Virus record (IMG/VR): IMGVR_UViG_2531839193_000010
Reading direction: 5' to 3' (one strand)
Source of the DNA: a virus
Taxonomy: Duplodnaviria; Heunggongvirae; Uroviricota; Caudoviricetes
Length of the DNA: 46,809 nucleotides
Shown here piece after piece: positions 10,128 through 10,753 of the stretch. Below the pieces are notes generated by a model. It saw nothing but the letters and a program-made list of their open reading frames with translations, did no database searches and had not been told where the DNA came from. A program made the position numbers and the translations under genes. How positions within the stretch are numbered: the stretch's first letter is position 1; every line of letters begins with the position of its first letter.

Positions 10128-10753
10128 CTAGAGTTCGTATTGAACTCCTTTGACTACACCAATGATCAGGCAATTACCATTGATTGGGATGTTGGGATAC
10201 CGTGGATTTAATGGCACTAAAAACTTTTGAGGACCATCGATGACTAATTTTTTACTGTAGCTTCGTTCGTTCCATCAAGTCGAGCAATGACTATTTTTCC
10301 ATGACGAGGTTCTGCATCAGGATCTACAATCACTGTTGCACCTTCTGGTATTGTTGGGAGGCCATTAGGATTAGTCATGGAGTCGCCTTTAACTTCTAAT
10401 GCAAATGAGTTATCACCAATCTTTAAAGATGTATCTACCCACTTGTCCACTTCACTAAACACTTCTGCTGCCCTGCACTCAGTAAACTGCCCAGCCTGAA
10501 CCCACGAAATTACAGGAACTCTGCGCATGTTTGTGACTAGTTTGCCTTCAAACTCAGCACCATAAAGAATGTAATCTATTGACGTATTAAAGAACTTCGC
10601 TAATTTCGAAAGTGCTTCCCCGCCAGGGACATTGATGTCTTTTTCCCAGTACCCCACAGCAACGTCACTTACCCCACAAAATTTACCCAATTCTTTCTGG
10701 GACGTTCTGGTAACCCTTCTCAGAGCTTTTATACGCTGACCAACCGTTTCCAT
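10128..10753 (-). pseudogene. cI/LexA-like repressor (HTH plus S24 peptidase domain) interrupted by a -1 nt frameshift in a homopolymer
   Basis: N-terminal HTH, Ala-Gly cleavage site (VQAGQF) and GDSM catalytic Ser are in the 10244-10753 ORF; the remaining C-terminus (KKLVIDGPQKFLVPLNPRYPNIPINGNCLIIGVVKGVQYEL) continues in the next frame to 10128 if one A is added to the A6 run (T6 on the + strand, 10248-10253). Confidence 0.75.

Follow-up and report, generated by a model that had tools for sequence, protein, structure and literature searches.

Among the closest described systems is the cI repressor of phage lambda (PDB 3bdn, 1f39, 2hnf, 2ho0, and 8gmu), which shares with the protein considered here an N-terminal helix-turn-helix (HTH) and a C-terminal self-cleaving peptidase S24 domain; the C-terminal domains align with an E value of about 1e-27 and the Ala-Gly, Ser, and Lys residues are in register. 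The P22 C2 repressor is closer than lambda cI in the N-terminal domain (E about 1e-10), and P22 C2, phage 21 cI, and the mEp235 repressor are about 47–49% identical to the protein considered here across 96% of the length, their domains following in the same order. The Ser-Lys dyad fold is also shared with LexA and UmuD of peptidase family S24 (E 2e-5 to 3e-4; Pfam PF00717), which are SOS proteins of the host, whereas the gene described here is a phage immunity repressor. The LexA DNA-binding domain itself belongs to the winged-helix type and not to HTH_3.

The DNA analysed, further referred to as the window, is the whole 46,809-nucleotide stretch of IMG/VR record IMGVR_UViG_2531839193_000010, a lambdoid prophage beside yjjG. 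Judged by its sequence, the gene is a cI-type, LexA-like (peptidase S24) repressor of lambdoid prophages, which is a known and widespread kind. As read in the window it is one base short in a homopolymer and ends prematurely, and the missing A is probably a homopolymer under-call in this assembly.

Prophage Context and Immunity Region

The integrase gene (385–1608) is directly followed by a prophage cargo gene at 1791–5618, which encodes a 1,275-aa SIR2-domain protein; in the complete genome L004 a near-identical copy bears the annotation Dsr1, an anti-phage defence sirtuin. Then come leftward early genes of yfdS/R/Q/P type, the immunity genes (repressor, a divergent 66-aa cro, and a ymfL/cII-like gene), replication and accessory genes (O-like, PerC, Dam, a LexA-DNA-binding-domain protein, RusA, KilA-N, and DUF968), late control and lysis genes (antiterminator, cold-shock genes, holin, lysozyme, Rz, and Bor), an IS2 element, and the packaging and structural genes for terminase, portal, capsid, tail, and tail fibre. 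The holin and endolysin genes are intact as read; for the antiterminator gene, identical copies in sister loci are annotated as intact.

The features on which the analysis is based are as follows.

10244..10753, minus strand: truncated cI-type repressor frame of 169 aa with HTH_3, Ala87-Gly88 linker, Ser125, Lys168, Asn, and stop (ORF, Pfam, and alignment)
10248..10253, minus strand: homopolymer A6 (plus-strand T6), which is A7 in relatives (sequence comparison)
10128..10247, minus strand: out-of-frame repressor remainder of 39 codons plus stop (translation after repair)
10754..10851, no strand assigned: divergent control region, the spacer between repressor and cro (sequence)
10852..11052, plus strand: Cro-like gene, 66 aa (the identical gene in sister loci has Pfam P22_Cro)
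20334..20338, plus strand: homopolymer contraction in Rz, C5 versus C6 in sisters (compared with the zero-substitution sequences L176 and L018)
29476..29481, plus strand: intergenic homopolymer contraction, T6 versus T7 in sisters (compared with L127, L167, and L168)

The spacer between cI and cro contains three partial palindromes of the CTAAG/CTTAG type (about 10775–10790, 10801–10819, and 10825–10842), which are candidate operators, and a PR-like −35/−10 pair on the plus strand at 10796–10824. Immunity regions are commonly laid out in this way.

Between Dam and RusA the gene at 14071–14397 encodes a 108-aa protein that consists of the LexA DNA-binding domain alone, without S24; the identical genes of sister loci carry Pfam LexA_DNA_bind, and the product might compete at SOS boxes. 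The IS2-type element (20820–22150, 1331 bp) is located between bor and the terminase region, contains InsC/InsD-like ORFs (20911–21276 and 21348–22139), and is flanked by a 5 bp target duplication, ACAAC.

The Repressor Gene as Read

The repressor ORF at 10244–10753 on the minus strand encodes 169 aa with the C-terminus ...NEATVKN. This agrees with the initial annotation, which had placed the stop after ATVKN and had described a cI/LexA-like repressor with an HTH, an Ala-Gly cleavage site, and a GDSM serine; both Pfam and the lambda cI alignments support that description. The A6 run in the coding strand begins at the third position of the Val167 codon, takes in the whole Lys168 codon, and ends at the second position of codon 169. 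Compared with the gene of its relatives the window gene is one base short in an A7 run and is otherwise unchanged in the alignment. Addition of one A to the run yields a 208-aa repressor that ends in ...ATVKKLVIDGPQKFLVPLNPRYPNIPINGNCLIIGVVKGVQYEL, just as proposed in the initial annotation, where the missing C-terminus had been located in the next frame. The out-of-frame remainder (LVIDG...VQYEL, with the stop codon at 10128–10130) is in frame in every relative.

According to Pfam, HTH_3 covers repressor residues 17–62 (E 2.5e-9), and residues 3–65 align to P22 C2 structures, which confirms the N-terminal HTH. Peptidase_S24 covers residues 80–168 of the 169-aa product and profile positions 1–80 of 116 only, while in the 208-aa sister protein positions 1–115 of 116 are covered; thus the S24 domain is incomplete as the window reads, with the part after the catalytic Lys missing. 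In the structure alignments VQA87-G88QF stands opposite lambda cI VQAGMF (A111-G112), which identifies the scissile bond of the linker; GDS125M stands opposite lambda GNSM (S149), and K168 opposite lambda K192 or, in the K192A chains 2hnf and 8gmu, opposite the substituted Ala. Ser and Lys are in the register of lambda S149/K192, as expected for an S24 repressor of the self-cleaving type.

Ala87-Gly88, Ser125 (GDSM), and Lys168 are all kept in the truncated frame. The catalytic Lys168 corresponds to the first AAA codon within the run and is retained as the penultimate residue, and so the break lies immediately after this Lys, within a run that encodes it, and not just before it as originally suggested.

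Rarity of the Six-Base Run and Possible Recoding

The repressor gene is present in 513 of 5,426 complete E. coli genomes. These were searched for A6 with a 79-nt query centred on the run, one query per common allele. The window allele with A6 had no exact match in 14 complete genomes, the best match being 98.8%, that is, one gap, and the other common allele with A6 had none in 499 complete genomes. Among 131 retrieved loci with the site, 130 have A7 and one has A6; in IMG/VR at least 120 contigs carry A7, one carries A6, and none carries A8. The exact 169-aa product was not found in a 15-billion-protein collection, in which the 208-aa form is present on 473 contigs, and an exact 42-mer across the A6 site had no match in GTDB species-representative genomes or IMG/VR.

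The single A6 contig of IMG/VR (L126, IMGVR_UViG_2529292734_000008, 7,538 nt, run at 5965–5989) is DEC14B-like and carries the other common allele, which apart from the run is identical to that of strain Ecol_AZ146. Since it lies on a different allele, its A7 to A6 change arose independently of that in the window. The same pair of assemblies also differs in a homopolymer of the ymfL (cII-like) gene, where Ecol_AZ146 has C7 and L126 has C6 (about 5054); in Ecol_AZ146 this gene is annotated as frameshifted (L002 2209–2761).

These counts bear on the reading in which A6 is functional, so that low-level −1 slippage of tRNA-Lys or transcriptional slippage supplies the 208-aa protein at a very low dose, or the run acts as a phase-variable immunity switch. 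The site (GCTACAGTAAAAAATTAGTCATC / GTAAAAAATTAG) contains the slippery X_XXY_YYZ heptamer A_AAA_AAU in the zero frame. Slippage by −1 on GUA AAA AAU would yield Val-Lys-Lys-Leu and so match the wild type exactly, and tRNA-Lys is shift-prone in E. coli (PMC4066793). However, no downstream stimulatory structure was found, as the 93-nt downstream segment folds with an MFE of −7.4 kcal/mol (z +1.06), a stability equalled or exceeded by 178 of 200 shuffled sequences. Heptamers without stimulators give only about 2–10 times the 0.055% background in E. coli, at most some tenths of a percent, and A_AA.A_AA.U is not among the motifs listed above 0.10% without a stimulator (PMC4066793). Nor is the out-of-frame arrangement conserved, given A7 in 130 of the 131 loci and in all 513 genomes and the lack of A8 in IMG/VR. 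Programmed frameshifting was consequently rejected for want of both stimulator and conservation, and a phase-variable contingency locus was rejected because the tract shows no length polymorphism in IMG/VR or in the complete genomes. A functional role of A6 thus appears highly improbable. Equally slight is the chance that A6 is real and the lysogen is sustained by a trickle of full-length protein produced by slippage, as a hair-trigger or low-dose immunity, or that the 169-aa fragment represses while being uninducible.

Sister Copies of the Locus

In the search for sister copies the PerC allele and a tape-measure fragment were far more specific than the KilA-N protein, which matched 15,931 index blocks. 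Ten sequences show no substitutions over 2.3–3.7 kb of the window region 9300–13000, and each of them differs by one gap, with A7 in all ten. Zero-substitution alignments over longer spans are listed below with the positions at which they differ from the window.

L176 (NCTC assembly UGZB01000001.1): window 4804–20819 (16 kb), 0 substitutions; differs at the cI run and the C-run 20334–20338
L018 (IMG/VR contig): window 9810–20819 (11 kb), 0 substitutions; differs at the cI run and the C-run 20334–20338
L180 and L181 (two draft genomes): window 8931–17421 (8.5 kb), 0 substitutions; differ at the cI run only
L034 and L127 (one IMG/VR contig): window 8619–12855 (4.2 kb) and 24967–34644, 0 substitutions; differ at the cI run and the T-run 29476–29481
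L167 (AKND01000062.1): window 22616–44568, 0 substitutions; differs at the T-run 29476–29481 and a G8/G9 tract
L168 (Logan assembly of SRR065191): window 28440–36108, 0 substitutions; differs at the T-run 29476–29481

Over about 38 kb covered by zero-substitution sisters the small differences peculiar to the window amount to three homopolymer contractions of one base each: T7 to T6 in cI, C6 to C5 in Rz/Rz1, and T7 to T6 in the tail of an intergenic terminator. At each of these sites the sisters are concordant, and two of the three contractions break genes. The A6 form of this repressor sequence is unique to the window and is accompanied by other differences that affect homopolymers only.

The C5 run at 20334–20338 lies in the Rz ORF (19988–20389) and shortens Rz to 133 aa versus 153, and repair of the run restores the 153 aa; Rz1, which is expected to be embedded at the C-run as in lambda, would be hit as well. 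The C5 form of this run is also present on six other IMG/VR contigs, four of which come from one metagenome, while C6 is present on at least 120. The T6 run at 29476–29481 is the tail after a GC-rich hairpin, GCCCGTAAGGGC, and is T7 in L127, L167, L168, and L005. The Logan assembly of SRR065191 carries the same lineage marker with T7 at 29476, and its coverage stops short of cI. Nothing was found in papers about the sequencing platforms used for the AKND assembly and SRR065191 or for DEC14B.

Beyond the three contractions the sole difference between the window and its sisters is the IS2 insertion, which is missing at the 20820–22150 site in the otherwise identical L176 and L018. Such an insertion cannot be a base-calling error, and because of its presence the window is considered to come from a distinct isolate and not from a second assembly of one of these strains.

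Several further candidates for window-specific differences were set aside. Comparison with the less close L004 and L005 had given five contractions, which were narrowed to three by the zero-substitution sisters. The A6 run of the tape-measure gene is shared across the lineage. The C-run at 7–12, located just past yjjG where prophage and chromosome meet, is C6 in the window and was compared with the less close L004, the closest complete genome, in which it is C7. The G-tract differences belong to the sisters: two tracts that separate IS2 from the small terminase gene, G9 (22815–22823) and G7 (22952–22958), differ in length from one sister assembly to another, with G8 at 22815–22823 in AKND and G6 at 22952–22958 in the NCTC assembly, and the window agrees with the remaining sisters. 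The G8/G9 difference is thus L167's own, and L176 and L018 match the window there.

Tape-Measure Lesion

An A7 to A6 change at 34440–34445 divides the tail tape-measure gene into pieces of 650 aa and 371 aa (ORFs 32616–34568 and 34565–35680), and its repair gives a 1,021-aa protein. This A6 is common to AKND01000062.1, the Logan assemblies of SRR065191 and SRR065192, and IMGVR_UViG_2526164617_000021, while the run is A7 on 33 other IMG/VR contigs. As far as these sequences indicate, the split is a reproducible trait of the lineage, and it probably represents a real lineage-level pseudogene that leaves the prophage tail-defective.

Origin of the Missing Base

The initial annotation left two alternatives, a genuine truncation or a sequencing indel, and the comparison with sister copies favours the latter. 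The missing base is most likely an under-call because the sisters have A7, the window has two more contractions, and there are no substitutions; three contractions with no substitutions, in one assembly and with concordant sisters, are the usual signature of homopolymer under-calling. Against this explanation it should be taken into account that the sister assemblies also differ mutually in the lengths of their G-tracts.

A recent slippage from A7 to A6 in an already defective prophage would truncate the repressor after Lys168 and leave a null or weak repressor that lacks its last 39 residues and with them roughly a third of the S24 domain (profile positions 81–115 of 116). Judging by lambda cI, the C-terminal domain of such a product would be unfoldable, dimerisation and cooperativity would be poor, and self-cleavage would be lost. 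The sequence as given does read A6, and A7 runs are genuine mutational hot spots for indels that are under-represented in E. coli genes (PMC4066793; PMC8510543). Moreover, the same change recurs on a different allele in the second assembly, L126, and the window has other real lesions, namely, the shared tape-measure frameshift and the 1331-bp IS2; as the prophage is already decaying, further real pseudogenisation is not implausible. However, A6 is a singleton on a haplotype that is otherwise identical to ten others, and its absence from all 513 complete genomes indicates that real A6 alleles either seldom occur or are selected against.

The two companion contractions are also improbable under real mutation. 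Even in mutation accumulation lines of mismatch-repair-defective E. coli 30,061 substitutions versus 5,324 small indels were recorded among 35,385 mutations (PMC8510543); with this indel share the chance that three real mutations are all indels is about 0.15 cubed, or 0.003. In addition, a true repressor null would hardly be stably maintained because the holin and endolysin genes are read as intact and the antiterminator gene matches copies annotated as intact, so that derepression should kill the host. According to these data a genuine recent frameshift is considered unlikely, and the cause appears to be technical rather than mutational. Should the change nevertheless be real, it would be an ordinary recent pseudogenisation of the repressor, which predicts an unstable lysogen or another source of immunity.

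If the base was under-called, as is preferred here, the organism itself probably carries an intact gene, with an A7 tract that encodes Val-Lys-Lys and a product of 208 aa. The N-terminal HTH of this form would bind the predicted operators between repressor and cro, and after RecA activation the protein would, by analogy with lambda cI, cleave itself at Ala87-Gly88 through Ser125 and Lys168. In this case the appropriate annotation is a complete repressor of 208 aa, and the assembly needs polishing, since at least three homopolymers in about 38 kb have lost one base each, with two genes broken as a result. Counts of pseudogenes and the designation of prophages as “non-inducible” or “defective” would likewise be misleading when taken from this assembly.

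Comparison with Known Systems

The repaired window protein is identical to the E. coli prophage LexA family protein WP_000450739.1, the gene for which is base-for-base the same as the repaired window gene in several E. coli genomes, with the same neighbours as well (cro, the ymfL-type cII-like gene, and the O-like gene). The window differs from it in having A6 and not A7, hence the 169 aa. The cI proteins of Escherichia phages mEp460_4F5, vB_EcoS-569R4, and Kati have 99.5% protein identity to the repaired repressor, and the immunity type is the same as that of phage mEp460. The immunity type of P22 C2, phage 21 cI, and mEp235 is different despite their common domain order. In comparison with lambda cI the window repressor is distant in sequence and has its own operator specificity, and no rexAB-like genes are seen adjoining it.
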